A stretch of DNA of 64,000 nt from Ottowia sp. (GCA_017997715.1 JAGOEM010000001.1:1425-65424), one strand, 5' to 3'; counted from the stretch's first letter, positions 9,215 to 62,200 are shown. Notes: generated by a model from the letters alone, not told the origin. Numbers and translations are program-made.

Positions 9215-9279
9215 TTGGTACTAAAATTGGCCGCTAGCGCCCAGTAGACGGGCGCAGGCAGCTATCAATTTCGAAGTAA
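9215..9279 (-). repeat. family A dispersed repeat, copy A1 (rpoA-rplQ spacer)
   Basis: Minus strand: TTACTTCGAAATTGATAGCTGCCTGCGC-N11-GCGCTAGCGGCCAATTTTAG. Confidence 0.8.
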
Positions 9280-9305
9280 TCGTCCTCATCGGACATTCAC
9301 AGTGC

Positions 9306-9332
9306 AAGGGCCGTACCTGATACGGCGGTCCT
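9306..9332 (+). ncRNA. putative L17 ribosomal leader hairpin
   Basis: GGGCCGTACCTGATACGGCGGTCC directly upstream of rplQ; resembles my recollection of the L17-Actino-Proteobacteria leader candidate; not searched. Confidence 0.5.
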
Positions 9333-9363
9333 CTTAACAAGGTTCCTAGAAGGAAAAAGCACC

Positions 9364-9750
9364 ATGCGACACGGCCACGGACTACGTAAACTCAACCGCA
9401 CAACCTCGCATCGACTGGCGATGTTGCGCAACATGATGAACTCGCTGATCGAGCACGAAGCGATCAAGACCACGGTCCCCAAGGCCAAGGAATTGCGCCG
9501 CGTGGTCGAGCCCATGATCACCTTGAGCAAGACCGACAGTGTGGCCAACCGCCGCCTGGCGTTTGCCCGCCTGCGTGATGACGCCAGCGTTGCCAAGCTG
9601 TTCAACGAACTGGGCCCGCGTTTCAATGCGCGTCCGGGCGGCTACACGCGCATCCTGAAGATGGGTTACCGCGTGGGCGACAACGCCCCGATGGCTTACG
9701 TTGAGTTGGTTGATCGCGCCGAATCATCGGGCGACGACAAAGCTGAATAA
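9364..9750 (+). CDS. rplQ: 50S ribosomal protein L17
   Basis: [27 protein letters not shown]. Confidence 0.98.
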
Positions 9751-9773
9751 ATCTGATATACTCGTAGGCTTAC

Positions 9774-9850
<77 letters not shown>

Positions 9851-9856
9851 AGTTGC

Positions 9857-9887
9857 AAAAAAGCCCACCGATTGGTGGGCTTTTTTT
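9857..9887. terminator. bidirectional Rho-independent terminator
   Basis: AAAAAAGCCCACC-GATT-GGTGGGCTTTTTTT between convergent tRNA and lipoprotein gene. Confidence 0.85.
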
Positions 9888-9935
9888 ATTGGCGCGGCTA
9901 AACGCCCCATGCGCCCGGACGAAGGGCGCGGCAGC

Positions 9936-10424
9936 CTACCAGCCCGCTCGTCTCAAAACGAATGGGCTTTCTTGGGCCGGCTTGCCGTCTTGCGGCAGGG
10001 TTTGCCAGGTACCACGGATTTCCGCGCCGCAACGCGCCGGCGTCAACTGACCGGACCAGAACGCATAAAGGCGCTTGCCGTCCACCGATTCGTCCAGGTT
10101 GAATTCCCCCGCTTCCACGTCGCCCGATGCGATCGAGCGCTGGTTGCCGTAGCGAAATTCACCGCGCAGGCTTTCGTTGAACTCGGGGTGCTGGCGCAGC
10201 GTCAGTTGGCCGCGTTGCTGGGTGGCCGTTAACTCCAGCTCCCACGTGCCATAAAGCTGGGCGGGGCTCAATGTCTTCACGTCTGGGCAGTCGGCCGAGC
10301 CTGCGGCAGCGCTGTCGCTTGTGCCTGGGCTCACGGCACTTCCGCTGCCGGCACATGCAGTGAAGAGCGCGGCGACGGCAAGGACAGAGAGCAACGCGCG
10401 AAGTGGGTGGGTAGTCTTTCGCAT
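9936..10424 (-). CDS. hypothetical lipoprotein
   Basis: Basic N-terminus, hydrophobic stretch, lipobox-like FTA-C; directly follows rep. Confidence 0.7.
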   Translation of the reverse strand: MRKTTHPLRALLSVLAVAALFTACAGSGSAVSPGTSDSAAAGSADCPDVKTLSPAQLYGTWELELTATQQRGQLTLRQHPEFNESLRGEFRYGNQRSIASGDVEAGEFNLDESVDGKRLYAFWSGQLTPARCGAEIRGTWQTLPQDGKPAQESPFVLRRAGW

Positions 10425-10426
10425 GT

Positions 10427-12493
10427 TCAATTCGCGGGTGTGGCAGCGGCGCTGTCGTGCGCGCGGCGGGCAAATTCGGCACGAAGCGCCTTCAACTTGG
10501 CGCGGGGGTCTTCACGCACGGTGGCGCTGTCCAGCGCCATCTCGGCGATAAAACGGCTGGGCTGGGCGGCGACGAGTTCACGCGCCTTTTTGCGGCGCCG
10601 GGTCCAGCTGACCGCCAGCGTGCGCTGTGCGCGCGTGATGCCCACGTACATCAGGCGGCGCTCTTCCTCGATCCGCGCAGCCAGGGTGGCCGCGCTGGCA
10701 TCCTCGTCGGGCCGAAACGGCAACATGCCCTCCACCACCCCCGCCAAGATGACGTGGGGCCATTCCAGGCCCTTGGAGGCGTGCAAGGTCGACAGCGTCA
10801 CCATGTTGGGGTCTTGTTCGCGCTCGTTCAGTGTGGAGATCAACGACACCGTTTGCGCCACCTGCAGCAGCGAGCTGACCTCGCGCGCCGTACCTGCGCC
10901 TGTGCTGTCGTCGATCTGTCCGCCGCAGCGCCCGGCCATCCAGTCGCAGAACTCCAGCACGTTGCTCCAGCGCGATGCCGCGACGGTCTCGCTGTCTTCG
11001 CTGTCGTACAGGTACTTCTCGTAGCCGATGTCTTTTAGCCAGTCGCTCAGGAAGGTGCGGGCGGCGTCCTCGCCCATTGCGCCGCCGGCCCGAAAGCGCA
11101 GGTCGTTCAGCTCACGGCCAAATTCCAGCAGGCTCTCGACGGCGCGGTTTGGCAAGGCGCTGCCCAGCGATTGGGCAAACAGCGCGCCGAACAGCGACAG
11201 GTGCGACCGGCTGGCGAAGTCGCCCAGTTGGGCCAGGGTCTGATGGCCGATGCCGCGCTTGGGCGTAGTCACGGCGCGCAAGAAGGCCGGGTCGTCATCC
11301 TCGTTGATCCACAGGCGCAGCCAGGCGCACAGGTCCTTGATCTCGGCGCGGTCAAAAAAGCTTTGGCCGCCGGTCACCTTGTACGGAATCTGCGCGCGGC
11401 GCAGGGCTTGTTCGAGCACGCGCGCCTGGTGGTTGGCCCGGTACAGAATGGCAAAGTCGCGCCATTCGTTGTGCGGCGATGTCTGGCGCAGCGACTGAAT
11501 GCGCGCCACGGCACGCTCGGCCTCGTGCTGCTCGTGGTCGCAGTCGACCACCCGCACCGGCTCGCCCTCGCCCAACTCCGAGTACAGCGTCTTGGGAAAC
11601 AGCTTGGGGTTGGGGCCGATGACGTTGTTGGCCGCACGCAAGATGGCGCTGGTGGATCGGTAGTTCTGTTCCAGCTTGACGACCTTCAGCGCCGGGTAGT
11701 CCTGCGGCAGCCGCTTCAGGTTGTCCAGCGTGGCGCCGCGCCAGCCGTAGATGCTCTGATCGTCGTCGCCAACGGCGGTGAAGTTGCCGGCATCGCCCAC
11801 CAGCAGTTTCATCAATTCGTACTGCGTGGCGTTGGTGTCCTGGTATTCATCTACCAGCGTATGTGCCAGCCGCGCTTGCCACTTCTGCGCGAGTAGCTCA
11901 TCTTTTCGTAGCATGCGCAGTGGCAGGCCGATCAGGTCATCGAAGTCGACACTTTGGTACGCGCTCAGGCGCTCTTCGTAGCGCGCCATCAGCTCGGCGG
12001 TATGGCGTTCGCCTTCGGACGTGGCCTGCGCGCGCGCGTCGGCGGCGTTCATGCCGTCGTTTTTCCAGCGGCTGATGGTCCATTGCCATTGGCGCGCGGT
12101 GGCGGCGTCGGTGGTGGCGCCGCAGTCCTTGATCAGCGACAGCACATCGTCGCTGTCGAGAATGCTGAACTGCGGCTTCAGCCCCACCGCGGCGCCGTCC
12201 TCGCGCATCAGCCGCACGCCCAGGGCGTGAAAGGTGCAGATCAGCACCTCGCTGGCGGCCTTGCCGACCAGGCCGCGCGCGCGTTCGCGCATCTCGGCTG
12301 CGGCCTTGTTGGTGAAGGTGATGGCGGCGATGCGCTTGGGCGCCACGCCGCATTCGATCAGGCGCGCGATCTTGTGCGTGATGACCCGCGTCTTGCCCGA
12401 CCCCGCGCCCGCCAGCACCAGACACGGGCCGCGCAAATGGTTGACGGCATCTTGTTGCGCGAGATTCAGACCAGAAGAAGACAAGGCGGGCAA
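10427..12493 (-). CDS. rep: ATP-dependent DNA helicase Rep (UvrD/Rep family)
   Basis: AGAGSGKTRVIT, VDEYQDTN, VGDDDQSIYGWRGA, LEQNYRS, HASKGLE, EERRLMYVGITRA; start codon approximate. Confidence 0.88.
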   Translation of the reverse strand: MPALSSSGLNLAQQDAVNHLRGPCLVLAGAGSGKTRVITHKIARLIECGVAPKRIAAITFTNKAAAEMRERARGLVGKAASEVLICTFHALGVRLMREDGAAVGLKPQFSILDSDDVLSLIKDCGATTDAATARQWQWTISRWKNDGMNAADARAQATSEGERHTAELMARYEERLSAYQSVDFDDLIGLPLRMLRKDELLAQKWQARLAHTLVDEYQDTNATQYELMKLLVGDAGNFTAVGDDDQSIYGWRGATLDNLKRLPQDYPALKVVKLEQNYRSTSAILRAANNVIGPNPKLFPKTLYSELGEGEPVRVVDCDHEQHEAERAVARIQSLRQTSPHNEWRDFAILYRANHQARVLEQALRRAQIPYKVTGGQSFFDRAEIKDLCAWLRLWINEDDDPAFLRAVTTPKRGIGHQTLAQLGDFASRSHLSLFGALFAQSLGSALPNRAVESLLEFGRELNDLRFRAGGAMGEDAARTFLSDWLKDIGYEKYLYDSEDSETVAASRWSNVLEFCDWMAGRCGGQIDDSTGAGTAREVSSLLQVAQTVSLISTLNEREQDPNMVTLSTLHASKGLEWPHVILAGVVEGMLPFRPDEDASAATLAARIEEERRLMYVGITRAQRTLAVSWTRRRKKARELVAAQPSRFIAEMALDSATVREDPRAKLKALRAEFARRAHDSAAATPAN

Positions 12494-12721
12494 TCGACCA
12501 AATCGTGCATCTTAGCGCGCGGTGGGCGTTCAGGCGTGCGCCACTCCGTTGCGCACTGCGTCACCAATCTGCCACATTTTTCGGCGACTTATGTGGTCGA
12601 AAGTTCGCGATTGGCCGGCCTTTGGCGACACTATGGCGCCGCTCGCTCAGCTAGCGAATGCCCGCGACCAGGCGGGTCAGCCGTGGTGCCGAGACCGACC
12701 AAAACCGATAAGGACATACCG

Positions 12722-13375
12722 ATGAAGAGACAACAGACGTGCAGCCTTTGGCTGGCCGCCAGCCTGGGGTTGGCCAGTGCCACGGCGGTGCTTGCGCAAA
12801 CACCGTCGCAGGTGCCCGGATCTCCGGCCGCGAAGGTCTCGCCCGCAGGGGCGCGTCTGACGCCCACCGCCCAAGTCGGCGGGCAGACGGTTCAGCTCAA
12901 TGGCAAGGGCACGCGCTACCGCGCGGTCGTGCGGGTCTACGACGTTGGCTTGTACACCACCGCCAAGGTCAATTCGGTCGAGCAGTTGGCCGCCCTGACG
13001 GGGCCCAAGCGCCTGCACCTGATCACACTGCGGGACCTGACCGGCGATTCATTGGGCGTGGCCATGGTCAAGGGCATGCAGGACAACGCGCCCGCGGGGG
13101 AAAGGATCAAGCTGATCGCACACATGGATCGCCTGAGCCGCATTTTTGGCGCAGAGCAACTGGCGCCGGCGGGTACCGTGCTGACCATCGACTACGTGCC
13201 GAGCCAAGGAACCATGTTCTTCCTCAACGGCGAGTCGAAGGGCGAGATCGTGACCGATCCGGCCTACTTCGTGGCGGTTGCCCGTATCTGGCTGGGCCCC
13301 AAGCCCGCAGACGCAGCGCTGAAAGACGCGCTGCTTGGCATCGAAACCCGCCGCCCGGAGTCCGCTGGCGGTTGA
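12722..13375 (+). CDS. secreted chalcone-isomerase-like protein
   Basis: Signal peptide; LQLNGxGxR-like start, VYDVGLY, IWLGPKPADAALKDALLG; the ORF-track upstream extension overlaps rep and is rejected. Confidence 0.75.
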   Translation: MKRQQTCSLWLAASLGLASATAVLAQTPSQVPGSPAAKVSPAGARLTPTAQVGGQTVQLNGKGTRYRAVVRVYDVGLYTTAKVNSVEQLAALTGPKRLHLITLRDLTGDSLGVAMVKGMQDNAPAGERIKLIAHMDRLSRIFGAEQLAPAGTVLTIDYVPSQGTMFFLNGESKGEIVTDPAYFVAVARIWLGPKPADAALKDALLGIETRRPESAGG

Positions 13376-13459
13376 TGCGCATGGCATGATCGAGGCGCGC
13401 CACCCGGTGCACTCGCTGAGGGGGCGAGTGGTTGATCCGGCGTTGGTTCGCGCTTCCGC

Positions 13460-14422
13460 TTGATCGCCATCTTCGCCGTCACCTTTCCTTTCTTTGCGCT
13501 GGTGCTGTGCGGCTACCTGGCGGCGCGGTCGCGTCTGCTGCCGTTGGATGCGGTGCCGGGGCTGAACACCTTCGTTCTGTACTTTGCGCTGCCGTGCATG
13601 TTGTTTCGGTTTGGCAGCACCACGCCCCTGGCTTCGCTGTTCGATCCGGTCGTGGCGGCGCTGTGGTTGCTGTGCGGCGCAGTCGTCATCGCCTTGGCGG
13701 CGTGGTTGGCCCGCGCGCGTGGCGCCGGTTGGCCAGATGCGGCGATGGGCGCGCTGGTGGCTGGTTTTCCCAATTCGGGCTTCATGGGCGTGCCGTTGAT
13801 TCTGGCGCTGCTGGGCGATGCCGGCGTGGGCCCGGTCATGGCCACTTTGCTGGTGGATCTGGTGGTGACCACCTCGGTGTGCATTGGCCTGTCGCAATGG
13901 GGTGCGGCGGATGAGCACGGGCCCGTCAAGGCCGTTTTGCGCGCGCTGAAGGGGGTGGCGCGCAACCCCATGCCCTGGTCGATTCTGCTGGGCGCGGCTG
14001 CCGGCATGGTCGGGCTCACCCTGTGGGCGCCGCTGGGCAAAACCATTGGGCTGCTGGCCGATGCGGCTTCCCCGGTGGCGCTGTTCACCATTGGCGCAGT
14101 GCTGGCGCGTTCCCAGATGCACGCGCGCGTCACGGGCGACCGGGGGGCGCACCTGCGGGACGAACCCTGGTTGGCGGGCATCAAGCTGCTGCTGCACCCG
14201 CTGCTGGTATGGGGGCTTGGCTGGGTGGCAGTGCGCCAGGGCTGGTTGGCGCCGACGATGCTGGTTCCGCTGGTGATGGCCGCCGCCTTGCCCGCCGCCA
14301 GCAATGTGTCCTTGCTGGCCGAACGCTTTGGTGCAGACAATGGCCGTGTGGCGCGCGTGATCCTGTGGTCCACCGCGCTGGCGTTCTTCACGTTTTCGGG
14401 TTTGGTGGCCCTGCTGCGTTAG
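13460..14422 (+). CDS. AEC (auxin efflux carrier) family transporter
   Basis: About 10 hydrophobic helices; FVLYFALP, NSGFMGVPL, ALPAASNV. Confidence 0.85.
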   Translation: MIAIFAVTFPFFALVLCGYLAARSRLLPLDAVPGLNTFVLYFALPCMLFRFGSTTPLASLFDPVVAALWLLCGAVVIALAAWLARARGAGWPDAAMGALVAGFPNSGFMGVPLILALLGDAGVGPVMATLLVDLVVTTSVCIGLSQWGAADEHGPVKAVLRALKGVARNPMPWSILLGAAAGMVGLTLWAPLGKTIGLLADAASPVALFTIGAVLARSQMHARVTGDRGAHLRDEPWLAGIKLLLHPLLVWGLGWVAVRQGWLAPTMLVPLVMAAALPAASNVSLLAERFGADNGRVARVILWSTALAFFTFSGLVALLR

Positions 14423-14480
14423 CGCCAGGGCAGCGGATGTGCGTCAACGCCCACGCTGGCCAACACGATGGCCTGAACGC

Positions 14481-14514
14481 AAAAACGGACCGGGTCTTTC
14501 GCAAGCCGGTCCGT
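14481..14514 (-). terminator. Rho-independent terminator
   Basis: Minus strand ACGGACCGG-N12-CCGGTCCGT-TTTT downstream of the 14552-14920 gene. Confidence 0.6.
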
Positions 14515-14551
14515 CCTTGGGACATCCCAGCTTTCGCCGGGCGCAAACTGC

Positions 14552-14920
14552 TTATTTGTGCTGGGGAGGCAGATTCATCGGCTGAATCTGCTTGACCTCG
14601 GCGTCCAGCTCGGTCTTGGGCATCGAGGTGACGCTTTCGCGGATCACACCACCGCCCACCACGCTGCCAGTAGCCTCGCCTTTGCCATTCACGCGGTTTT
14701 CGCAATCGACTTTGTAGAAAGCGGGCAGGTTGGCGCAACGCTGCAGCTCGTTCTGGCGCGCTTGCTCGGGCGTGACGCTGGTCAGCTGCGCGCCGCGTGC
14801 GTTGCGCGTTTCCATGCGCGCTGCGCTCTTGTCCTGGTTGGTCTCAGCGGGCGTCATTTGCGCCAACGCGGGCAGGCTCAGGGCGCCCCCCAGGGCGATG
14901 ACGGCGATCAGTTTATTCAT
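14552..14920 (-). CDS. small secreted hypothetical protein
   Basis: MNKLIAVIALGGALSLPALA signal peptide; GGAGAGG RBS; Cys pair (RCANLP...DCENRV). Confidence 0.75.
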   Translation of the reverse strand: MNKLIAVIALGGALSLPALAQMTPAETNQDKSAARMETRNARGAQLTSVTPEQARQNELQRCANLPAFYKVDCENRVNGKGEATGSVVGGGVIRESVTSMPKTELDAEVKQIQPMNLPPQHK

Positions 14921-15082
14921 GGTGTTACCTCTCCAATAGGATCGTTCTCGCCGCGCGAAAGCGGCGCTGCCGAAATGGCCATCGACCGGGCGATTGCTCG
15001 CCGCCGACTTCCTCGCGCAGTCTAGGTCAGATGGCAGAGTCTGCCTGTCGGACAAGACCGCAATCTGCCGCGCCCTTGCCGG

Positions 15083-17269
15083 TCACACCGCCAGCGGGTC
15101 CACGTCGATCGCCCAGCGCACCACGGCGCGGTGGTCGGCACTGGCGCGCAGCCCGTGCAGCAGCGGCTGGCAGGCGGCCAGCACGCGTTGCAGTGCCGCG
15201 CGCGACGGGCTTTCGATCAGCATCTGCGCGCGCTCGATGTTGGCCACACGCTGAATGGTCAACGGCACGGCGGGGTACCAGGTCAGCGCGGCAAAGGCTT
15301 CGGCCAGCTCGCCGCCAGACAGTGCCTGGGCCGCAGCCTGCGCCGCCGCATTCAGAAAGCCCTGCGCCACGTCTTGCGACCGGGCTTCGGCGCGCAGCAA
15401 AGCCAGGTGGCTGAACGGCGGCAAGCCGGCCTCAGCGCGCTCCTTCAGCTGCGTGGCGGCAAAACCGGGGTAGTCGTGCGTCTTCAGTGCGGCAAACAAC
15501 GGGTGCTGCGGGTGTTGCGTCTGCACCCACATCTCGCTGGATACGCCACTGTGCAAATCGCGCCCGGCGCGGCCCGCGGCCTGCATCAGCAGGGCAAACA
15601 GGCGTTCTGGCGCGCGAAAGTCGCTGGAATACAGCGCGCCATCGGGGTTGACGGCCGCCACCAGCGACACGCGGCGAAAGTCGTGCCCCTTGGCCACCAT
15701 CTGGGTGCCCACCAGCACATCCACGTCGCCAGCGTGCACCTGGGCCAGCTGCGCTTCCAGCTGGCCGGCGCCGCGCGCCGAATCGGCGTCGATGCGCAGC
15801 ACCCGCACGGGCTGGCCGTCGGGGCGGTGCACGTCCGCCAGCAGCTCGACCAGGCTTTCCTCCAGCTGCTCGGTGCCCCGGCCCAGCGTGCCGATGTCGG
15901 GGTTGCCGCACTGGGGGCAGGCGCGTGGCACGCGCTGGGTAAAGCCGCAGTGGTGGCAGCGCAGTGTGCGGTCGATCTTGTGAAACACCCGGTACGCGCT
16001 GCAGTGCGGGCATTCGCTTTTCCAGCCGCAATCGCCGCAGTGCAGCACCGGCGCCCAGCCACGGCGGTTCAGCAGCAGCAGCACCTGCTCGCCGCGCCTC
16101 ACCCGCTCGCCAATGGCGGCCAGCAGGGGCGCCGCCAGCAGCGTGCCCTTGGGCTGGCGGTTCATGTCGACCCGGCGCACGCGCGGCAGCCCGGTGCTGG
16201 CGTCTTCATCGGCGGCGGTGCCAATGCGCCGCGGCATCGCCAGGCGCTGGTAGCGGCCCGGGCCATCGGGTGCGGGCGTGCTGGCGTACCAGCTTTCCAG
16301 CGAAGGCGTGGCCGAACCCAGCACCACCTTGGCGCCGCACAGGTGGCCGCGGTACACCGCCAGGTCGCGCGCCGAATAGCGGGCGCCTTCCTGCTGCTTG
16401 TAGCTGGGGTCGTGCTCTTCGTCCACCACGATCAGCGCGAGCGCGGGCAGCGATGCCAGCACCGCCACGCGCGTGCCCAGCACGATGCGCGCGTGCCCCA
16501 GGTGCGCGGCCAGCCAGTTGCCCAGGCGTTGCGCCGGGGTCAGGCCGCTGTGCATGGCCACCACGGCGTCGGCGCCAAAGCGCTCGGCAAAGCGCGCCTC
16601 CAACTGGGGTGTCAGGTTGATTTCGGGCACCAGCACCAGCACTTGGGCGGCCGCATCGCGCGCCAGGGCGCTGGCGGCGGCGCGCATGTAGACCTCGGTC
16701 TTGCCGCTGCCGGTGGCGCCAAACAGCAGAAACGGGCCGGCGTTGCCCTCTATCTGATGCAGCGCACCGGCCTGTTCGGCCGACAAGGGCAGCGCCGCAT
16801 CGGCACTGAGCGTGACCGCCACCGCCGCGCCCTGCCGCTTGAGCCGGCGCGCCAGCTGCACGCTGCTGAGCGTGCGCAACTGCGGCGGCAGTGCGGCCAG
16901 GGCCACTTCACCCAGTGCGCGTTGGTAATAGCGCGCGGTGAAGGCGATCAGCCCGCGCCAATGTGCGTCCAGCGGCGGCAGGCCTTCCAGCGCGCCCACC
17001 ACGGCGCGGGTCTGCGCGGCCCATTCGGGTGGCGGCGCGGGCTGGTCGGCCGCCCACACCACGCCCAGCACTTCGCGCGTGCCCAGCGGTACCCTCACCA
17101 GCGTGCCAGCGGGCAAGGGCTGGTCGGCGCGGTAGGTCAGCAGCTCGGCCAGGCTGCTGTGCGCCGGCGTGGGCACCGCCACCGCCAGCCAATGCGGCCC
17201 GGCGGCGGTGGCGTGGGCGGCGCTATCAGGATCGACTTGCACAGTGGTTGCTAAGTCCTTGATTTGCAA
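15083..17269 (-). CDS. priA: primosomal protein N'
   Basis: GATGSGKTEVY, VDEEHDPSYKQ, four CxxC motifs, GTQMVAKGHDF, QAAGRAGR; start may be GTG 17242. Confidence 0.95.
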   Translation of the reverse strand: MQIKDLATTVQVDPDSAAHATAAGPHWLAVAVPTPAHSSLAELLTYRADQPLPAGTLVRVPLGTREVLGVVWAADQPAPPPEWAAQTRAVVGALEGLPPLDAHWRGLIAFTARYYQRALGEVALAALPPQLRTLSSVQLARRLKRQGAAVAVTLSADAALPLSAEQAGALHQIEGNAGPFLLFGATGSGKTEVYMRAAASALARDAAAQVLVLVPEINLTPQLEARFAERFGADAVVAMHSGLTPAQRLGNWLAAHLGHARIVLGTRVAVLASLPALALIVVDEEHDPSYKQQEGARYSARDLAVYRGHLCGAKVVLGSATPSLESWYASTPAPDGPGRYQRLAMPRRIGTAADEDASTGLPRVRRVDMNRQPKGTLLAAPLLAAIGERVRRGEQVLLLLNRRGWAPVLHCGDCGWKSECPHCSAYRVFHKIDRTLRCHHCGFTQRVPRACPQCGNPDIGTLGRGTEQLEESLVELLADVHRPDGQPVRVLRIDADSARGAGQLEAQLAQVHAGDVDVLVGTQMVAKGHDFRRVSLVAAVNPDGALYSSDFRAPERLFALLMQAAGRAGRDLHSGVSSEMWVQTQHPQHPLFAALKTHDYPGFAATQLKERAEAGLPPFSHLALLRAEARSQDVAQGFLNAAAQAAAQALSGGELAEAFAALTWYPAVPLTIQRVANIERAQMLIESPSRAALQRVLAACQPLLHGLRASADHRAVVRWAIDVDPLAV

Positions 17270-17567: not shown

Positions 17568-18752
17568 TCAGCGTTGGCGCAGCGCGCGTGAATGGCGGTG
17601 CACCTCGTCCACCAGGTGCGACACATGCTCGGGCGGGGTGAATTGGCTGATGCCGTGGCCCAGGTTGAAGATGTGCGTGCTGCCCGGCGCCGCGCGGTCG
17701 GTGTGCGGGGTGCCAAAACTGTCCAGCACCCGGCGCACTTCGGCGCGAATGGCGTCTGGCGGGGCAAACAGCACGTTCGGGTCGATGTTGCCCTGCAGCG
17801 CCTTGGGGGTCTGATTTTTTATGTCATTTATGCCGCTGTCGCCCGTTGGGTGGGCGCTGGCAGCTATGGTTTCAGGAGTGGTCTGGCGTGCCGCATCGGT
17901 CACAATGCGCCGCGCCGTGCCCAGGTTCATCGTCCAGTCCAGGCCCAGCGCGTCGCAGTCCAGCCCCGTCATTTCGGGCAGCCACAGCCCGCCGCCCTTG
18001 GTGAAGACGATGCGCGGCACCACCGCGCCATCGGGCCCGGTGCGCTTGAGTTGCGCCAGCACGCGCCGCGTGTAGGCCAGGCTGAAGGCTTGAAAAGCCC
18101 CATCGGCCAGCACGCCGCCCCAGCTGTCGAACACCATCACCGCCTGCGCGCCCGCGTCGATCTGCGCGTTCAGGTACTGCGCCACGCTGTCGGCGTTGAT
18201 GGCCAGCAGGCGGTGCATCAAATCGGGCCGCGCGTACATGAAGGATTTCACCTGGCGGTAGTCGTCGCTGCCGCCGCCTTCCACCATGTAGCAGGCCAGC
18301 GTCCACGGGCTGCCTGAAAAGCCGATCAGCGGCACACGGCCCGCCAGCGCCTTGCGGATGCTGCTCACCGCATCAAACACGTAGCGCAGCTTGTCCATGT
18401 CGGGCACGGCCAGCGCGGCCACGGCGGCCTCGTCGCGCACCACTTTGGCGAACTTGGGGCCTTCGCCCACCTGGAAGGACAGGCCCAGGCCCATGGCGTC
18501 GGGCACCGTCAGGATGTCGCTGAACAGGATGGCCGCGTCCAGCGGGTAGCGCGCCAGCGGCTGCAGCGTGACCTCGGTCGCGTAGTCCACGTTGGTGGCC
18601 AACCCCATGAAGCTGCCGGCCTGCGCGCGCGTGGCGCAGTACTCGGGCAGATAGCGGCCGGCCTGGCGCATCAGCCAGACTGGGGTGTGATCGGTGGCCT
18701 GGCCCAGACAGGCGCGCAGGAAGGTATCGTTTTGCAAGGGGGCGAAGCTCAT
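17568..18752 (-). CDS. hemE: uroporphyrinogen decarboxylase with internal repeat-derived insertion
   Basis: [40 protein letters not shown]. Confidence 0.96.
17816..17880 (-). repeat. family A repeat A2, in-frame inside hemE
   Basis: CACTCCTGAAACCATAGCTGCCAGCGC-N11-GCGACAGCGGCATAAATGACATAAAA, encoding [21 protein letters not shown]. Confidence 0.8.
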
Positions 18753-21759: not shown

Positions 21760-23090
21760 GCGCAGGCGCGCTCCAGCGCCTGGTCGATGTCCCACAGGAT
21801 GTCCCCCACATCCTCGATGCCCACCGACAGCCGCACCATGTCGGCGCGCACGCCGGCACGCGCCAGTTCGTCGTCGTTCAGCTGGCGGTGCGTGGTGGAG
21901 GCGGGGTGGATCACCAGGGTCTTGGCGTCGCCGATGTTGGCCAGGTGGCTGAGGAATTCGCAGGCGTCGATGAATTTCTCAGCCGCCGCCGCGCCACCGT
22001 TCACCCCAAAGGTCAGGATGCCGGACGCGCCCACATGCCCGTCCACCGCGTGGAACTGCTTTTGCGCCAGTTCGTGGTACGGCGAATCGGGCAGGCCGGG
22101 GTAGTTGACCCAGGCCACGCGCGGGTGCTGGCGCAGGTAGTCGGCCACGCGGCGTGCGTTGCGGCAGTGTTCGCGCATGCGCAGGTGCAGGGTTTCGCAG
22201 CCCTGCAGCAGCTGCCACGCGCTCATGGGCGGCAGCACGGCGCCAAAGCTGCGGTTGACTTCCATACGCGCCTTCATGGTGTAGCCGAAGTCGCCAAAGG
22301 TCTCGTAGAACTTGACGCCGTGGTAGGCGCGGCTGGGCTCCACCATCTCGGGGAACTTGCCGTTGTCCCACGGGAAATGCCCGCCTTCGACGATCACGCC
22401 GCCCATGGTGGTGCCGTGCCCGCCGATGTATTTGGTGGCGCTGTGCACCACGATGTCGGCGCCCAGCCGCAGAGGGTTGCACAGGTAGGGGCTGGCGACG
22501 GTGTTGTCGATGACCAGCGGCACGCCGTGCGCGTGCGCCACGTCGGCCACGGCGGTGATGTCCAGCACGTTGACCAGCGGGTTGCCAATGGTTTCGCCGT
22601 ACACCGCGCGCGTGTTGGGGCGCATGGCGGCGGCAAAGTTGTCGGGGTCGGCCGGGTCGACAAAGGTGGTCTGGATGCCCAGCCGTTCAAAACCCACGCC
22701 CAGCTGGCCGATGGTGCCGCCATACAGCGTGCTGGCCGCCACGATGTGGTCGCCGCTTTTCAGGATGGCCAGCAGCGCCGTCATCTGCGCGGCCATGCCG
22801 CTGGCGCAGGCCAGCGCGGCGCGCCCGCCTTCCAGGCTGGCCATGCGCTCTTCAAACACCGCCACCGTGGGGTTGCCAATGCGGCTGTAGACGTGGCCAA
22901 AGGTCTGCAGGTTGAACAGGCTGGCCGCGTGTTCGGCGCTGTCGAAGACGAAGCTGGTGCTTTGGTGGATGGGCGTGGCGCGCGCGCCGGTCACCGGGTC
23001 GGGCACGGCGGCGGCGTGGATGGCGCGGGTGGCAAAGCCAAAGGCGCGGTCGGCGCCGGGCGCTTGAAGGGGGTCTGTTTTTTGAATCAT
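21756..23090 (-). CDS. metY: O-acetylhomoserine aminocarboxypropyltransferase (sulfhydrylase)
   Basis: GFATRAIHA, YSRIGNPT, VHSATKYIGGHG (PLP lysine), ANIGDAKTLVIHPASTTH; start approximate. Confidence 0.9.
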   Translation of the reverse strand: MIQKTDPLQAPGADRAFGFATRAIHAAAVPDPVTGARATPIHQSTSFVFDSAEHAASLFNLQTFGHVYSRIGNPTVAVFEERMASLEGGRAALACASGMAAQMTALLAILKSGDHIVAASTLYGGTIGQLGVGFERLGIQTTFVDPADPDNFAAAMRPNTRAVYGETIGNPLVNVLDITAVADVAHAHGVPLVIDNTVASPYLCNPLRLGADIVVHSATKYIGGHGTTMGGVIVEGGHFPWDNGKFPEMVEPSRAYHGVKFYETFGDFGYTMKARMEVNRSFGAVLPPMSAWQLLQGCETLHLRMREHCRNARRVADYLRQHPRVAWVNYPGLPDSPYHELAQKQFHAVDGHVGASGILTFGVNGGAAAAEKFIDACEFLSHLANIGDAKTLVIHPASTTHRQLNDDELARAGVRADMVRLSVGIEDVGDILWDIDQALERACA

Positions 23091-23143
23091 TTTGGCCTTC
23101 AGCGCAATGTACACGGGCGCAAGCAGCTATTAAAAATGTAGTC
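23078..23143 (-). repeat. family A repeat A3 (overlaps metY start)
   Basis: Minus strand GACTACATTTTTAATAGCTGCTTGCGC-N11-GCGCTGAAGGCCAAAATGATTCAAAA. Confidence 0.8.
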
Positions 23144-27730: not shown

Positions 27731-27795
27731 TTGCTACTGAATACATAGCTGCTTGCGCCCGCTGGTATTGCGCTGAAGCCAGATATTGTTTGAAT
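27731..27795 (+). repeat. family A repeat A4
   Basis: TTGCTACTGAATACATAGCTGCTTGCGC-N11-GCGCTGAAGCCAGATATTGTTTGAAT. Confidence 0.8.
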
Positions 27796-27834
27796 AGTTG
27801 GGTGTTGGGTGCGTTTGCAGCGCATCCTCCAGGT

Positions 27835-32067: not shown

Positions 32068-32091
<24 letters not shown>

Positions 32092-32133
32092 GCGCCCTAT
32101 CTACCGGCGCAGTAAGCTATTAAATAAGTAGTA
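32068..32133 (-). repeat. family A repeat A5 (overlaps synthetase stop codon)
   Basis: Minus strand TACTACTTATTTAATAGCTTACTGCGC-N11-GCGCTCAAGCCGTTTTTTGCTCTGAAAT. Confidence 0.75.
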
Positions 32134-34439: not shown

Positions 34440-35221
34440 ACCAAGCCCTTCGAATCAGCACGCAGAACCGCGTGGCCACGGTGGTGCTCAGCCGCCCCGA
34501 CGTGCGCAACGCCTTCAACGACGAAGTGATCGCCGAGCTGTCGCACGCCTTTTCGCAGCTGGGCGAAGACCCCGCGGTGCGCGCCATCGTGCTGATGGCC
34601 GAAGGCCCCGCCTTTTGCGCGGGCGCCGACCTGAACTGGATGCGCCGCATGGCCGACTACACGCGCGACGAAAACGTCGAGGACGCGGGCAAGCTGGCCT
34701 TCATGCTGCGCACCTTGTACGAATGCCCCAAGCCCACCATCGCCCGCGTACAGGGCGACGTGTACGCTGGTGGCATGGGCCTGGTGGCGGCCTGCGACAT
34801 GGCCGTCAGTGTCGACACCGCCCACTACTGCCTGAGCGAGGTCAAGCTGGGCCTGATCCCCGCCACCATCAGCCCCTACGTGATCCGCGCCATGGGGCCG
34901 CGCGCCGCGCACCGCTACTTTCTGACGGCCGAGCGCTTCACCGCTGCCGAAGCGCTGCGCATTGGCTTTGTGCACGAAGTGGTGCCCGTCGAAGCGCTGG
35001 ACGCCACGGTCAGCGACATGGTGGGCGCGCTGATCAGCGCCAGCCCGAACGCCGTGCGCGAATGCAAACAGCTGCTGCAGGACGTGGCCGAGCGCGATAT
35101 CTCGCGCCTGCTGATCGACCGCACGGTGGAGGGCATTGCCGACATCCGCGCCAGCGATGAAGGCAAGGAAGGCGTGCAAAGCTTCCTGCAAAAGCGCAAA
35201 CCAGCGTGGCTGGCCGATTGA
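34436..35221 (+). CDS. liuC: methylglutaconyl-CoA hydratase (crotonase family)
   Basis: RPDVRNAFN, FCAGADLNWM, AGGMGLVAACD, SEVKLGLIPATISPY; liu context. Confidence 0.8.
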   Translation: MNQALRISTQNRVATVVLSRPDVRNAFNDEVIAELSHAFSQLGEDPAVRAIVLMAEGPAFCAGADLNWMRRMADYTRDENVEDAGKLAFMLRTLYECPKPTIARVQGDVYAGGMGLVAACDMAVSVDTAHYCLSEVKLGLIPATISPYVIRAMGPRAAHRYFLTAERFTAAEALRIGFVHEVVPVEALDATVSDMVGALISASPNAVRECKQLLQDVAERDISRLLIDRTVEGIADIRASDEGKEGVQSFLQKRKPAWLAD

Positions 35222-35281
35222 TGATCAAAATGCCTTCTGGCGCCCAATCCACGGGCGCAAGCAGCTATTGTTGATATAGCG
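35216..35281 (-). repeat. family A repeat A6
   Basis: Minus strand CGCTATATCAACAATAGCTGCTTGCGC-N11-GCGCCAGAAGGCATTTTGATCATCAATC. Confidence 0.8.
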
Positions 35282-39667: not shown

Positions 39668-39733
39668 GCGCTGCTGAATTGATAGCTGTTCGCGCAGTCG
39701 TGTAGGGCGCTGCAGCCCTAAATCATTCAAAAA
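39668..39733 (+). repeat. family A repeat A7
   Basis: GCGCTGCTGAATTGATAGCTGTTCGCGC-N11-GCGCTGCAGCCCTAAATCATTCAAAAA. Confidence 0.75.
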
Positions 39734-44211: not shown

Positions 44212-44276
44212 TGCTATGAATAACGAAGCTGCTTACGCAGGTAAATCGGGCGCTGGCGGCCCATTTGATTCAGATA
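44212..44276 (+). repeat. family A repeat A8 (contains predicted start of DUF1289 gene)
   Basis: TGCTATGAATAACGAAGCTGCTTACGC-N11-GCGCTGGCGGCCCATTTGATTCAGATA. Confidence 0.75.
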
Positions 44277-45128: not shown

Positions 45129-45192
45129 TGCTATTTGAAACATAGCTGCTGGCGCACAGTGCACGCCCGCCAGAGGTGGTTTTTGTTGCCAT
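45129..45192 (+). repeat. family A repeat A9
   Basis: TGCTATTTGAAACATAGCTGCTGGCGC-N11-CCGCCAGAGGTGGTTTTTG. Confidence 0.7.
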
Positions 45193-45211
45193 CCCAAGCC
45201 TTGCACCTGCC

Positions 45212-47690: not shown

Positions 47691-47756
47691 TGCTATCACT
47701 AACGTAGCTGCTTGCGCCCATTGGATAAGCGCTACAGGCCATTTTGATGCTGAAAT
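47691..47756 (+). repeat. family A repeat A10
   Basis: TGCTATCACTAACGTAGCTGCTTGCGC-N11-GCGCTACAGGCCATTTTGATGCTGAAAT. Confidence 0.82.
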
Positions 47757-50431: not shown

Positions 50432-50495
50432 CGCTGCAATAAACATAGCTGCCCACGCCCACACCATGCGGAAAGTGGGCGTATTTTCCATAAAA
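50432..50495 (+). repeat. family A repeat A11 (degenerate)
   Basis: CGCTGCAATAAACATAGCTGCCCACGC-N11-GGAAAGTGGGCGTATTTTCCATAAAA. Confidence 0.6.
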
Positions 50496-50523
50496 AAAGC
50501 CGGGCGCCAAGGCCCGGCTTTTT
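50492..50523. terminator. bidirectional Rho-independent terminator
   Basis: AAAAAAAGCCGGGC-GCCAAG-GCCCGGCTTTTT downstream of actP. Confidence 0.85.
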
Positions 50524-54704: not shown

Positions 54705-54796
54705 GCCGACGCGGGCGGGCAAGCCCGCGCAAGTGGCGCCGCAAATGCTGGTGGCGCCACTTGCCAGCCGCGCGGGCAGTCCAGATCCGCCCATGA

Positions 54797-54838: not shown

Positions 54839-54916
54839 GGTCTGAACAGCGCGCGGCAACTGCGCCGATATCGTCAAAATCAAAGCCGCGCTGCTGTTTG
54901 TCCAGCCGCCCCGGGC

Positions 54917-56020: not shown

Positions 56021-56206
56021 GTCCAAACTCCTGGTCTGGGTACAAGCCCTGGCGGGTATGCCGGGCAACGAACGCGCAGTGTACGACGATGTAATGAATT
56101 ATTACTAACGCAAAGTTGAGCGCATACCCCTTGTGCCAGCGGCGCGCCGCACTTGCAGGCAGAATATTTGCCCCACATGGGCCACGCGCCCACTGAGAGC
56201 CACTGC

Positions 56207-59200
56207 ATGACCACCGGTTTCATCCGCATTCGCGGAGCTCGCCAACACAACCTCAAGAACCTTGACCTGGACCTGCGCACCGGCGAGATGACGGTGGTGA
56301 CCGGGCCCTCGGGCTCGGGCAAGTCGTCCCTGGTGTTCGACACGCTGTACGCCGAAGGGCAACGCCGCTACGTCGAAACCTTCAGCGCCTATGCGCGCCA
56401 GTTTCTGGATCGCATGGACAAGCCCGCGGTCGACAAGGTGGAAGGCGTGCCGCCCGCCATCGCCATCGACCAGACCAACCCGGTGCGCAGCTCGCGTTCC
56501 ACGGTCGGCACCATGACCGAGCTGAACGACCACCTGAAGCTGTTGTTTGCCCGCGCCGGCCAGTTGTTCGACCGCCAGACCGCGCTGCCGGTGCGCCACG
56601 ACAGCGCCGACAGCATCTTCGACGAGTTGGTACGGCGTGCCGCGCAGGCCGGTGACCCGCGGCTGGTGCTGACCTTTGCCGTCGAGCTGCCCGCCAACAC
56701 CGGCGCTGATGAAGTGCAGCAATGGCTGTCGGCCAGCGGCTTCACCCGCGTACAGGCCGAGCGCGAAGTGGCTGGCAAGAAGGTGCTGGACGTGGTGGCC
56801 GACCGCTTCCGCATCGCCGGGGCCGAGCGCGCCCGCGTGGTCGAAGCGATCGAGGTCGCGCTCAAGCGCGGCAGCGGACGCATGACCGTGTACGCACTGC
56901 CGGCGGGCGAGGCCACCCCCTCGGGGGGCAGCGAAGCGCGCGAAGCGGCGAGCGTGGGGGCGAACGAGGGAACCGAGCGCCCCGGCGCCGGGTCGTCCCA
57001 AGGCGGGGCAGCCCCCTTGGGGGGCAGCGAAGCGCGCGAAGCGGCGAGCGTGGGGGCGAACGAGGGAACCGAGCGCCCCGCCGCCGGGCCGTCCCAAGGC
57101 GGGGCAGCCCCCTTGGGGGGCAGCGAAGCGCGCGAAGCGGCGAGCGTGGGGGCCCTATCACTTTTGTGGAAATTCTCCACCGGCCTGCACTGCCCGGAAA
57201 GCGACTTGCGCTACGCCGAGCCGATTCCGTCGATGTTCTCGTTCAACTCGCCCGTGGGCGCGTGCGAGACCTGCCGTGGCTTTGGCCGCGTCATCGGGGT
57301 TGACTGGGGCCTGGTGATTCCCGATGAACGCATGACCTTGCGGGCCGGTGCGATCAAGCCGATCCAGACGCCCGCCTGGCGCGAATGCCAGGACGATCTG
57401 ATGCGCCACGCCGAAAGCGCCGGCATACCGCGCGACACCGCGTGGAACCGGCTCACGGCCGAACAGAAAAACTGGGTCATCGAAGGCACGCCCACCTACA
57501 AGGACGGCCAGTGGAGCAAGCAGTGGTACGGCATCCGGCGCTTCTTCCAGTACCTGGAAAGCAAGGCGTACAAGATGCACATCCGGGTGCTGCTGTCCAA
57601 GTACCGCAGCTACACCCCTTGCCCGACGTGCGGCGGCGCGCGGCTGAAGACCGAATCGCTGCTGTGGCGCGTGGGCAGCAAGGCCGATGCCGACGCGGTG
57701 TTGGCGCCGTCGCCGCGCCGGCCCGCCCTCGGCGGCGACAGCGGGCAGCCCGCCAGCGCAGCGGCAGGGCCTGGGGCCACACGCTTCATGCCGCAAGGCG
57801 TGAAGTGGACGCGCGAACAGCTGGACGCGCTGCCCGGCCTGTGCCTGCACGACTTGATGCTGCTGCCCATCGACCGGCTGCGAACCTTCTTCGACCGGAT
57901 GGCCGATGCTCCTGAAAACAGAGCTGCTAGCGCCCATCCAGCAAGCGCTGAAGGCGTATTTGACCGAGAATCTGCCGATGCGCAGGCGCGCCGCCTGATC
58001 CTGGAAGAGATCCAGACCCGGCTGCGCTACCTGGCCGACGTTGGCATCGGCTACCTCACGCTGGACCGGCAAAGTCGCACGCTGAGCGGCGGCGAAGTGC
58101 AGCGCATCAACCTGACCACCGCGCTGGGCACCAGCCTGGTCAACACGCTGTTCGTGCTGGACGAGCCCAGCATCGGCCTGCACCCGCGCGACATGGACCG
58201 CATCACCGAAGCCATGCAGCGCCTCAAGCGCGCCGGCAATACGCTGGTGGTGGTCGAACACGACCCCGCCGTCATGCTGGCGGCCGACCGCGTGCTGGAC
58301 TTCGGCCCCGGCCCCGGCGCGGCGGGCGGGCAGATCGTGTTCGATGGCACGCCGGCCGAGCTGCGCGCCAGCGACACCCTGACCGGCGCCTACCTGGGCG
58401 GCCGCAAAACCATTCAGTCGGGCCTGGCGCGCCCGGTGACCGACAGCACGCCGCGCCTGATTCTGGAAGGCGTGACCGAACACAACCTGAAGCACGTCTC
58501 GGTCGACTTTCCGCTGACGCGGCTGGTCACCGTCACCGGCGTGTCGGGCTCGGGCAAGTCCAGCCTGATTCAGGACGTGCTGGCGCCCGCCTTGATGCGC
58601 CACTTTGGCAAGGCCACCGAATCGCCTGGCGCGCACGAACGCCTGCTGGGCGCCGACCATTTGAGCGGCGTGGTGTTCGTCGACCAGTCGCCCATTGGCA
58701 AAACCGCGCGATCCAACCCCGTCAGCTACGTCGGCGCGTGGGACACCCTCCGCGCCATCTTTGCCGACGCGCCACTGTCGCGCCAGCGCGGCTACACGGC
58801 GGCCAAGTTCAGCTTCAACAGCGGCGACGGGCGCTGCCCGACCTGCGGCGGATCGGGCTTTGAACACGTCGAGATGCAGTTCCTGTCCGACGTCTACCTG
58901 CGCTGCCCCGACTGCGATGGCAAGCGCTACCGGCCTGAGATCCTTGAAGTGAAGATCGAACGCCAGGCGCCCACCGATCTGCGCGCGCGCCACTTGAACG
59001 TGGCCGACGTGCTGGACCTGACCGTGGCCGAAGCCGTGCAACTGTTCGCGCGCGACCGCGAGGTCATCCGCGCGCTGCAGCCCATCGTCGACGTGGGCCT
59101 GGACTACGTCAAGCTGGGGCAGCCCGTGCCCACGCTGAGCGGCGGCGAAGCGCAGCGCTTGAAGCTGGCCGGCTTTCTGGCCGAGGCCGCCAAATCGCAA

Positions 59201-62200
59201 ACCGCCACGCGCCAACCGGCCGCGCGCAAAGGCCAGTTGTTCTTGTTTGACGAGCCCACCACCGGCCTGCACTTTGACGACATCGCCAAGCTGATGCGCG
59301 CCTTCCGCAAGCTGCTGGAAGCCGGGCATTCGCTGGTGGTGATCGAGCACAACCTGGACGTGATCCGCGCCAGCGACTGGCTGATCGACCTGGGCCCCGA
59401 AGGCGGCGACGCCGGTGGCACGGTGGTGGCCGAAGGCACGCCGGATGCGGTGGCGCGCCACGCCACATCGCACACCGGCGCGGCGCTGCGCGCCTATGCG
59501 CAGACGCTGGGCGAGGCGGTGGCGTTGACGGCCGAAGAGCCCCGTGCGCTATATAAAACAGAGCTGCCTGCGCCCAATGGGCGTGCGCTAGAGGCCAAAA
59601 ACACTTCAAACTCTATCGAGATCATTCACGCGCGCGAACACAACCTGAAGAACCTCAGCGTGGACATTCCGCGCGGCAAGTTCAACGTGATCACCGGCGT
59701 CAGCGGCTCGGGCAAATCCACGCTGGCGTTCGACATTCTGTTCAACGAAGGGCAGCGGCGTTACCTGGAATCGCTGAACGCCTACGCGCGCAGCATCGTG
59801 CAGCCGGCCGGCCGGCCCGAGGTGGATGCGGTCTACGGCATTCCGCCCACGGTGGCGATCGAGCAGCGCCTGTCGCGCGGCGGCCGCAAGAGCACGGTGG
59901 GCACCACCACCGAGGTGTGGCACTTTCTGCGCCTGCTGTACGTCAAGCTGGGCGTGCAGCACTGCGTGCACGACGACGCGGCGGTGCAACCACAAACGCC
60001 CGAACGCATTGCCGCGCAGATCATGACGCGCTTCAAGGGCCAGGTGATCGGCTTGATGGCGCCGCTGGTGGTGGGCCGCAAGGGCGTGTACACCGAACTG
60101 GCTGACTGGGCGCGCCCGCGCGGCCATACCCACCTGCGGGTGGATGGCGAGTTTCTGCCGACCACGGGCTTTCCGCGCATCGACCGATTCAAGGAACACA
60201 CCATCGAGCTGCCGGTGATGAGCCTGCCGGTCACCCCCGGCAACGAAGCGCAGCTGCGCGAATCGCTGACCCGCGCGCTGGAGCACGGCAAGGGCGTGGT
60301 GCATGTGCTGCACGACATCGGTGGCCTGCGCCACGCGCTGGAAACGGGCATGTCCACCCAGCACATCGGGCGGGTGGAGGTGTTTTCCACCAAGCGCGCC
60401 TGTCCGGTATGCGCCACCAGCTATGCCGAGCTGGACCCGCGCCTGTTCTCATACAACAGCAAGCACGGCTGGTGCCCCGACTGCGTGGGCACCGGCGTGA
60501 AGCTGACGCGCGAGCAGCGCAAGGCGCTGGACGATTCGGTGCTGGCCGACGACCAGAAAGGGCGCGAGCAGACCTTTGCCGAGGTGGAAGTGGAAGACGT
60601 GGGCCACGCCGCCTGCCCAAGCTGCCAGGGCACGCGCCTGAACCCGGTGGCGCGCCACGTGCGGCTGGATGGATACACCCCGCCCGGCACGGAGGTGCGG
60701 GACCGCGCGAAGGTGCAGGGCGTCGCCATCACCGACCTGGCGCGCCTGTCGGTGCGCGATTTGCGCCAGTGGTTTGACGGCTTGCGCCTGCAAGGGCGCG
60801 ACGCCGATATCGCGCGCGATTTGCTGCCCGAAATCCAAAGCCGGCTGGCTTTTCTTGAACAGGTGGGCCTGGGTTATTTGACGCTGGACCGCGGCGCGCC
60901 CACGCTCAGTGGTGGCGAGGCGCAGCGCATCCGCCTGGCCGCGCAGCTGGGCAGCAACCTGCAGGGCGTGTGCTACGTGCTGGACGAGCCGACCATTGGC
61001 CTGCACGCGCGCGACAACCAGATCCTGCTGGACGCGCTGCACAACCTGTCCAGCAAGGGCAACACGCTGGTGGTGGTGGAGCACGACGAGGACACCATCC
61101 GCCGCGCCGAGCACCTGATCGACATCGGCCCCGGTGCCGGCGTGCGCGGCGGCCACCTGGTGGCGCAGGGCACGGTGGCCGATGTGGCCGCCGCGCCCGA
61201 TTCCGCCACCGGCCGCTACCTGCGCGACGCGATGCGCCACCCCCTGCACCCGCGCCGGGCCATCGGCAAGGCGCCGCCCGCCGTGGCGGTGACCGAAGGC
61301 GACGGCTGGCTGTCGCTGAAAGGCGCCTACCTGCACAACCTGAAAGACGTGGACGTGGCCGTGCCGCTGAAGCGCCTGGTGGCGGTAACGGGCGTGTCCG
61401 GCTCAGGCAAATCCACGCTGGCGCGCGACGTGCTGCTTGCCAGCGTGCAGCGCTTTGTACGGCAAGAGATGAAGGGTAAAAAGGCCGCCATCGCAGACGC
61501 GGCGGGCGCAGGCAGCTATGAAATAAATAGCCACGGCCTGATCGGCTGTACTGGCCTGGAAGGCTTTGGCCAGATCGACCGCGTGCTGGAAGTGGACCAG
61601 ACACCCATCGGCAAAACCCCGCGCAGCTGCCCCGCCACGTACATCGGCTTTTGGGACACGGTACGCAAGCTGTTTGCCGACACGCTGGAAGCCAAGGCGC
61701 GCGGCTATGGCCCCGGGCGCTTCAGCTTCAACACCGGCGAAGGGCGCTGCCCGTCGTGCGAAGGGCAGGGCGTGCGCACCATTGAGATGAGCTTTCTGCC
61801 CGATGTGAAAGTGCCGTGCGAAGTGTGCCGCGGCGCCCGCTTCAACCCCGAGACGCTGGCCGTCACCTGGCGCGGCAAGAGCATCGGCGACGTGCTGCAG
61901 ATGGAGGTGGACGAGGCGGTCGACTTCTTCGCCAGCATGCCCAACATTGCGCACCCGCTGCAGCTGCTGAAAGACGTGGGCCTGGGCTACCTGACGCTGG
62001 GCCAGCCATCGCCCACGCTGAGCGGTGGCGAGGCGCAGCGCATCAAGCTGGTGACCGAACTCAGCAAAGTGCGCGACGACATCACCCGCCGCGGCAACAA
62101 GGCGCCGCACACCCTGTACGTGCTGGACGAACCCACGGTGGGCCTGCACATGCAGGACGTGGAAAAGCTGATCCACGTGCTGCACCGCCTGGTGGACGGC

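Follow-up and report, generated by a model that had tools for sequence, protein, structure and literature searches.

A 65-bp DNA motif recurs 1,088 times in the genome of Ottowia sp., and we describe here its properties, starting from a 64,000-nt stretch of that genome (GCA_017997715.1 JAGOEM010000001.1:1425-65424; hereafter the window, to whose full length all window coordinates refer). The motif is a real, family-wide DNA signal that is very likely read by a protein. Its copy number, rigid geometry, recoding of genes in place, fixed positions, exclusion in spacing, thinning in islands and lineage dialects are all observed, together with purifying conservation of its AGC and CGC cores. As for the force that maintains it, we assign a probability of roughly 40% to drive in DNA exchange, most likely transformation, with the motif serving as a protein-read self-mark.

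The initial annotation of the window had listed 14 copies, eight on the plus and six on the minus strand; all of them were recovered in place, and a weak fifteenth was added. An ungapped weight matrix seeded from the 14 copies, with a copy defined by a score of at least 20, was applied to the source genome (G000, a 3.67-Mb assembly, 86% complete), where it identified 1,088 copies (1,113 at a score of at least 12), or one per 3.4 kb. The same matrix found none in the assembly shuffled locally in 100-bp blocks. With the A of ATAGC numbered as position 1, the unit spans positions -12 to 52, carries about 57 bits of information and has the consensus TGCTAY-N7(A/T tract)-RTAGCTGCYWGCGC-N11-GCGC-TRNAGSCC-N-ATTT-N7-AAW. 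It comprises a left dyad, GCTAY-N7-RTAGC, in which CT and AG lie 11 bp apart and which is followed by TGCYW, and a right dyad, GCGC-N11-GCGC, followed by TRNAGSCC and by A/T tracts at positions 39-42 and 50-52. Positions A3, G4 and C5, as well as C12, G13 and C14, are 98-100% conserved. The N11 spacer is as rigid in length genome-wide as had been claimed for the window (481 copies, against one with N10 and one with N12), and the N7 spacer behaves likewise (439 copies, against 0 and 1 at the neighbouring lengths); apparent N9 and N7 variants of the second spacer proved to be register artefacts (19/20 and 8/9, respectively). All 1,066 of 1,066 nhmmer matches lack a net indel, with a profile that was itself trained without gaps. 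The companion claim that the spacer varies freely in sequence was not borne out, as it carries strong, species-specific dinucleotide preferences.

Several features indicate that the motif is read as double-stranded DNA. Across the 1,088 copies there are strong couplings between adjacent bases (positions 15-16, 24-25 and 40-42), and almost no complementary covariation between the paired positions of either dyad, in G000 as well as in genomes G018 and G007; the 15:25 pair, for instance, occurs at 0.42 against 0.37 expected in G000 and falls below expectation in G018. Pairing does appear in a mixed sample of 120 copies from named genomes, which we take as a between-species effect because whole species favour either TT..AA or CC..GG. 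In G007, the second GCGC has a G at position 27 (GGGC) in 67% of copies, without compensation. Both strands are used equally: with gene context taken from our own codon-model gene caller, 234 copies lie in one and 253 in the other orientation between co-directional genes, and 110 are sense and 118 antisense within genes. With respect to replication, strands are interspersed along the first 2.9 Mb of a G008 contig without bias, an apparent strand bias there being an artefact of listing, and G018 carries 111, 101 and 110 copies on mixed strands in three blocks; unlike Chi and KOPS, the motif thus has no replichore polarity in these two genomes. A role as an RNA or single-stranded DNA hairpin (terminator, stability element or HUH substrate) might be suggested by the quasi-palindromic form of both dyads, the enrichment at gene 3' ends and, for copies in convergent gaps, a small excess of pairing (0.98 of 2 pairs, vs 0.79-0.87). 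It is nevertheless highly improbable and already largely refuted by the near-absence of compensatory pairing within genomes, by the uncompensated GGGC of G007 and by the equal use of strands. The motif also has no Rfam match; the scan of the window matched only a tRNA gene (9774-9847).

Between genes, 198 of 335 convergent gaps hold a copy, as do 440 of 1,307 co-directional ones and 55 of 394 divergent ones, a pattern that mere avoidance of promoters would give. The genes flanked by two copies turned out to be ordinary genes.

The sites themselves are fixed while their spelling drifts. In a comparison with 1.2 Mb of G018, which holds 322 copies, 159 of the 166 alignable G000 sites contain a copy in the same orientation, although four-fold degenerate sites are only 74% identical, and the AGC core is 100% identical at the kept sites; G007 retains 52 of 59 sites. 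These values support the earlier proposal that the rigid spacing reflects selection for double-stranded recognition rather than decay of a MITE (miniature inverted-repeat transposable element). Positions 15-16 are mostly CC in G000, TG or AG in G018 and AG in G007; in the last of these, just two 11-mers make up 18 of the 118 spacers. The identity of the N11 spacer between G000 and G018 is near random (kappa 0.07 vs 0.53 at four-fold sites), which we read as a dialect shift combined with relaxed constraint; we rejected hypermutation or block swapping of the spacer, since the close pair G007/G004 does not repeat this near-random identity and shows, over 25 sites, scattered point changes at about flank rates. 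A3 is broken in about 1% of copies in every rich genome. Selection or drive thus keeps each of about a thousand sites to a preference which is itself evolving. Furthermore, the flanks of the right-dyad GCGC change in mirror image between G000, G018 and an Acidovorax-rich sample, independently at each site, which points to a symmetric dimer as the reader; such a dimer would be more typical of cytoplasmic DNA-binding proteins than of pilin.

Copies within genes were largely built in place. In G000, 228 copies lie inside gene calls, 188 of them more than 150 nt from both gene ends. We searched 49 of 70 coding windows against NCBIfam, of which 38 matched across both flanks, and 45 control windows, of which 28 were informative. 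Relative to the family profile, the net length change of the 38 ranges from -10 to +25 aa and is often zero: 13 lie within 3 aa, three below -3 aa, eight at +4 to +8 aa, 11 at +10 to +18 aa and three at +24 or +25 aa. A gain of at least 4 aa occurs in 22/38 motif windows versus 3/28 controls. Coding copies therefore favour longer loops, those in hemE, parB, gluQ and metH being examples, and the gain rarely equals the unit. The initial annotation had noted that the copies in hemE and uvrA add residues, which holds insofar as the loops are longer (by 29 aa in hemE); its inference of a general spread by insertion does not hold, since only 3/38 gain close to 22 codons and 13/38 gain none.

The folC copy (score 59) illustrates the alternative. 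It lies in a gapless alignment to E. coli FolC that includes a run of identical residues, and all of the 47 other matches in the genus equal it in length. Among the 21 orthologues read, the 13 from genomes with at least 331 left-module matches score 17-59 and use rare A/T-ending codons, while the remaining eight, one of them from a genome with 319 matches (G063), use G/C-ending codons for an almost unchanged peptide, with scores of -29 to -64. The copy in methylmalonyl-CoA mutase behaves in the same way, as a synonymous re-spelling. Over the 188 coding copies, GC content at third codon positions is 0.48 vs 0.87 in the flanks, and rare codons account for 31% vs 5%. Compared with a motif-free relative, eight of nine coding copies differ by -2 to +1 aa, those in ksgA and argS being of the same length, and in folC, the mutase and oppD the copy leaves the length typical of the family unchanged. 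Insertion cannot produce such codon re-spelling at fixed length. Spread by insertion is thus mostly unsupported; some loops may be former unit insertions.

These data bear on the proposal that the family goes back to insertions of an old non-autonomous mobile element (a MITE, a repetitive extragenic palindromic (REP) element or a palindromic element of the Rickettsia type), which a host protein afterwards domesticated. We consider this improbable as an origin, and mobile insertion as the present mode of spread is already refuted. The enrichment of coding copies in longer loops, three of them with 24-25 additional aa, would suit it, as would the preference for gene 3' ends and convergent gaps. 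The zero-gain copies speak against it, as does the fact that 1,084 of the 1,088 copies are unique, nearest neighbours differing at about 17 of 66 positions; the near-identical pairs mostly lie in duplicated segments with common flanks, among the matches listed, and are not the young copies expected of a MITE. The empty orthologous sites that the initial annotation had proposed to look for yielded no clean example among 16 non-shared sites, again among the matches listed. Tests for the other MITE hallmarks, terminal inverted repeats and target duplication, were likewise negative, which agrees with the early observation of no terminal repeats and no transposase, and Y1 transposases do not track the motif: none was found in G000 (86% complete) or in G024 (99% complete, 519 matches), and they are present in motif-free genomes. 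Finally, random insertion would give none of the spacing exclusion described below. Rickettsia palindromic elements add a full-length insert and fold as hairpins, unlike the motif, with its variable net gain and almost no covariation. They share with it the presence of many copies inside intact genes, often in loops (PMC3184786; for this and every other article or preprint cited by identifier, our statements refer to the sections that concern the point at issue). The motif resembles REP/REPIN-RAYT systems as a short dispersed repeat at gene 3' ends, and differs in having no selected hairpin with a tetranucleotide foot, doublets, young identical copies or tracking Y1 transposase. The BRE repeat of Bordetella and Comamonadaceae (Hot et al. 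2011, PMC3110155) is likewise dispersed, in some of the same genera and sometimes within genes, but has another sequence, about 90 bp in length and 69% GC, with at most 29 copies and tandem arrays.

The copies located in the window are as follows.

9214..9278, minus strand: motif copy immediately behind the stop codon of rpoA, score 67
11849..11913, minus strand: weak fifteenth copy, absent from the initial annotation, inside the open reading frame of a helicase that we take to be UvrD/Rep-like from its N-terminal motif, score 27
17816..17880, minus strand: motif copy in hemE, in a loop that exceeds its counterpart in solved HemE by 29 aa, score 49
23079..23143, minus strand: motif copy between co-directional genes, score 63
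27732..27796, plus strand: motif copy between convergent genes, score 66
32069..32133, minus strand: motif copy overlapping a stop codon, score 58
35217..35281, minus strand: motif copy at a gene 3' end, score 58
39669..39733, plus strand: motif copy between convergent genes, score 52
44212..44276, plus strand: motif copy at a gene 3' end, score 60
45129..45193, plus strand: motif copy between co-directional genes, score 42
47691..47755, plus strand: motif copy at a gene 3' end, score 63
50432..50496, plus strand: degenerate motif copy between convergent genes, score 27
57907..57971, plus strand: first uvrA copy, in a variable loop, common to relatives
59547..59611, plus strand: second copy inside uvrA
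61468..61532, minus strand: third copy inside uvrA

The three uvrA copies lie in a double-length UvrA of 2,068 aa (window 56207-62413). At the second, most relatives without a detectable copy are shorter by 2-13 aa, not by 22 aa, and one is 3 aa longer; the third shows a net gain of 21 nt over the usual empty allele and is a replacement, not a 65-nt insertion. The same UvrA loops carry a different, GC-rich repeat in some relatives (loci L015, L020 and L025). Elsewhere in G000, at contig C204:31000-34400 and also in C227, C82, C319 and C150, short genes are separated by attC-like sites and each is preceded by a common leader of about 250 bp with one motif copy, an arrangement that resembles a cassette array of the integron type in which the leader is repeated. 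A second dispersed repeat often lies just upstream of motif copies (C296, C335, C305, C199, C52 and others), with 18 flank matches in one cluster. Separately, G021 stands out by its twenty matches to Y1 (IS200-type) transposases, of which its congeners have 0-5.

Motif copies exclude one another over short distances. A neighbour within 800 bp was found for 17% of 127 coding copies, compared with 39 ± 4% in a length-matched null (0/300 simulations as low), and within their own gene coding copies sit away from the nearest copy (mean rank 0.575 ± 0.024, n = 148). Co-directional gaps are occupied at 0.17 if the next copy is less than 0.8 kb away and at about 0.4 if it is more than 1.5 kb away, and intergenic occupancy grows with distance to a plateau at about 2 kb. 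Evenness among intergenic slots alone is not significant (p 0.24), whereas the distance-based tests are. Motif density is 4.5-fold higher in the longest genes. Neisserial conversion tracts, at 1.1-1.7 kb (PMC2397512), are close to this exclusion scale. Copies are also thinned in regions of the chromosome that are not shared: in G018, the stretches without a match in G000 (323 kb) contain 40 copies, or one per 8.1 kb, and the other 877 kb contain 282, or one per 3.1 kb, some of the unmatched stretches not being true islands, as G000 is 86% complete. Islands of 15-41 kb have no copy, nor do 29 ribosomal-protein-like genes; in the window, the ribosomal protein operon (spc/alpha region, 920-9213) is free of copies across 8.3 kb, the first following the rpoA stop.

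The motif is distributed patchily within the family. A single pattern matches 63 of 301 family genomes, 37 of them with at least 10 matches (hand count), in about 25 genera; named carriers, among the matches listed, include the Comamonadaceae genera Acidovorax, Rhodoferax, Polaromonas, Giesbergeria, Simplicispira, Ottowia, Xylophilus and Ramlibacter. None of 24 genomes from other families of the order matched a stricter pattern. Rich and empty genomes occur within one genus (0 vs 155, 4 vs 167 and 12 vs 305 matches), indicating repeated loss among congeners, and 49 genomes of the source genus range from 0 to 801 left-module matches. Three of them (G036, G015 and G004) are nearly blank for the full pattern and rich for the left module, which marks the left half as the constant part.

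Phage contigs hold at least 123 motif loci, and 68 of 70 locus groups have no host-like gene. Among the first viral loci, the copies in L027, L029, L033 and L042-L044 lay near the 3' end of Rha/Ant antirepressor genes, a neighbourhood that recurred in only 2/70 groups of the larger sample; no Rha/Ant homologue was found in G000. Empty phage alleles were looked for and not found, and a plasmid search with one 91-bp copy, of low sensitivity, returned no match. Drive by another, ComEA-independent route (transduction, packaging, conjugative mobilisation or nuclease survival of incoming DNA) would jointly explain origin in place, exclusion, loss and the comEA independence described below, and the phage copies would fit it. 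We regard it as unlikely: the 1-2 kb exclusion scale is short for headful packaging or conjugation, the motif has no orientation such as Chi has, and no link to an integrase, relaxase or terminase stood out in 22 viral loci read by eye.

Returning to drive through transformation, the motif would be built in place in the chromosome and kept at fixed sites at least about 1 kb apart, as a double-stranded self-mark read by a host protein that would favour marked fragments during DNA exchange; better matches would then gain ground through molecular drive, in the manner of uptake sequences. The constant anchor would be the left dyad (CT-N11-AG plus CGC), and a two-fold symmetric partner would read the right dyad (GCGC-N11-GCGC), because several species differ in mirror image in the preferences of the two halves of this dyad, which nevertheless vary independently at individual sites. 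Bends or minor-groove contacts may be provided by the A/T tracts at about -13, -3, 41 and 51. An origin in place, lineage dialects, repeated loss, lack of polarity, a bias to the core genome and saturation at 1-2 kb together make up the known signature of the DNA uptake sequence (DUS) and the uptake signal sequence (USS), which likewise show high copy number without strand bias, an in-place origin in coding sequence with frame preference, permissive core-genome sites, rarity in islands and lineage dialects (PMC1626085, PMC2397512, PMC2817400, bioRxiv 10.1101/2025.10.24.684340). The genetic context is partly compatible. Both comEC and dprA were found in the source genome and in two motif-rich relatives, and comEA is present in 13/13 genus genomes with at least 400 matches versus 4/14 with five or fewer, these kin not being independent. 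Strains of Acidovorax temperans and A. facilis are naturally transformable (PMC4212676), and genomes of both carry about 500 left-module matches.

A considerable body of evidence weighs against this explanation. Searches at the protein and family level did not find comEA in five related genomes with 249-355 matches (G003, G025, G061, G063 and G064), in all of which comEC is intact, or in two complete genomes from other genera, with 200 and 23 matches to another pattern; in none of these seven motif-bearing genomes, which are 90-100% complete, was the whole uptake gene set found. The five related genomes show no decay: broken cores number 23/1,569 in them versus 79/7,755 in comEA-positive ones, with about two chance matches per genome in both groups. 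Conversely, six motif-poor genomes of other genera keep comEA, and motif-poor G012 keeps comEA, comEC and dprA. In the Pasteurellaceae, all eight members with uptake sequences keep comE1 (PMC1626085). An A. defluvii genome carries the motif, and that species was not transformed in the study cited above (PMC4212676); Verminephrobacter eiseniae, the only family member hinting at selective uptake, has no motif pair in the table of Tong et al. (PMC5217627). The PilE/ComP-like and FimT/GspH families are near-universal in the genus and do not track the motif. Motif density around a copy in phage DNA is a third to half of host density. The unit itself also differs from DUS and USS: it has 65 bp, 57 bits and two dyads against a 9-12-bp core, it forms no inverted terminator pairs (five of 16 close pairs are inverted), and it overrides codon bias, which uptake sequences follow (PMC2817400). 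In one species, loss of comEA reduced transformation about 100-fold, not to zero (PMC7811196), so comEA-less carriers may retain weak uptake. The motif may thus work like DUS and USS, and we do not file it as one of them. The search for a co-occurring protein that the initial annotation had suggested likewise came up empty, as comEC and dprA do not follow the motif either, and a synteny screen that covered 400 kb, or about 10%, of the motif-free genome G016 gave 23 candidates, with no plausible reader among them.

Several of the same observations would suit ordinary selection on the binding sites, every few kb, of an intracellular dimeric or tetrameric chromosome-maintenance protein acting in bending, compaction, topology or repair loading, an explanation that we hold to be possible at odds clearly below even. 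It would account for two dyads with 11-bp gaps placed 23 bp apart, for phased A/T tracts and mirror-image dialect shifts, for conservation undiminished without comEA, for exclusion spacing with higher density in the longest genes, for copies in phage DNA and for a force stronger than codon bias. It is harder to reconcile with repeated loss of the system among congeners, with the lack of a co-occurring gene and with the stepwise building of a 57-bit site in folC, which needs a local benefit at each step; the empty islands and the empty ribosomal protein operon argue against a transcription-topology role.

Parts of the motif have been noticed in print. Tong et al. 2017 (PMC5217627) report ATAGCT(N22)CAAAAG in Polaromonas naphthalenivorans, which corresponds to motif positions 1-6 with 29-34, and GCTTAT(N5)AAGCG in Acidovorax ebreus, corresponding to positions 13-18 with 24-28. 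These are given as separate, unexplained pairs of 114-125 copies with the same intergenic and convergent bias as the motif, and more motif fragments appear in the supplement. The parts of that paper concerned do not give the full 65-bp unit, its copy number, conservation, recoding, spacing or dialects. Across the literature searched, which did not extend to subscription journals and bioRxiv supplements, this was the only relevant work, no description of the whole unit or of a function was found, and exact 12-13-mers of the motif matched no paper. The suggestion that the family was undescribed accordingly stands for the whole unit and falls for its fragments, which had been listed without a function; the motif is partly noticed in print and not explained in the literature searched.

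Taken more broadly, we judge it just short of an even bet that the motif is a 65-bp chromosome-wide address code of the Comamonadaceae, read by a symmetric protein complex, independent of the known ComEA uptake ratchet and under a force of such strength that it rewrites essential genes as well as the genomes of phages and sets the distances between its own sites. It would then represent a new class of genome signal, either a third and much larger self-recognition system for DNA exchange or a system of chromosome maintenance not yet described. For two bacterial families, the Pasteurellaceae and the Neisseriaceae, it is established that sequence-specific self-marks rewrite coding DNA; the present motif is several times longer than their cores and persists without comEA. 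It occupies about 2% of the genome and shapes some 200 proteins. For those who annotate these genomes, it accounts for the Ala-rich peptides and the patches of rare codons that recur in them. The roughly 25 genera that carry it are common in water and wastewater, and their independent losses, dialect shifts and comEA-less carriers, together with a transformable laboratory species that carries the motif, offer a natural experiment on drive versus selection.

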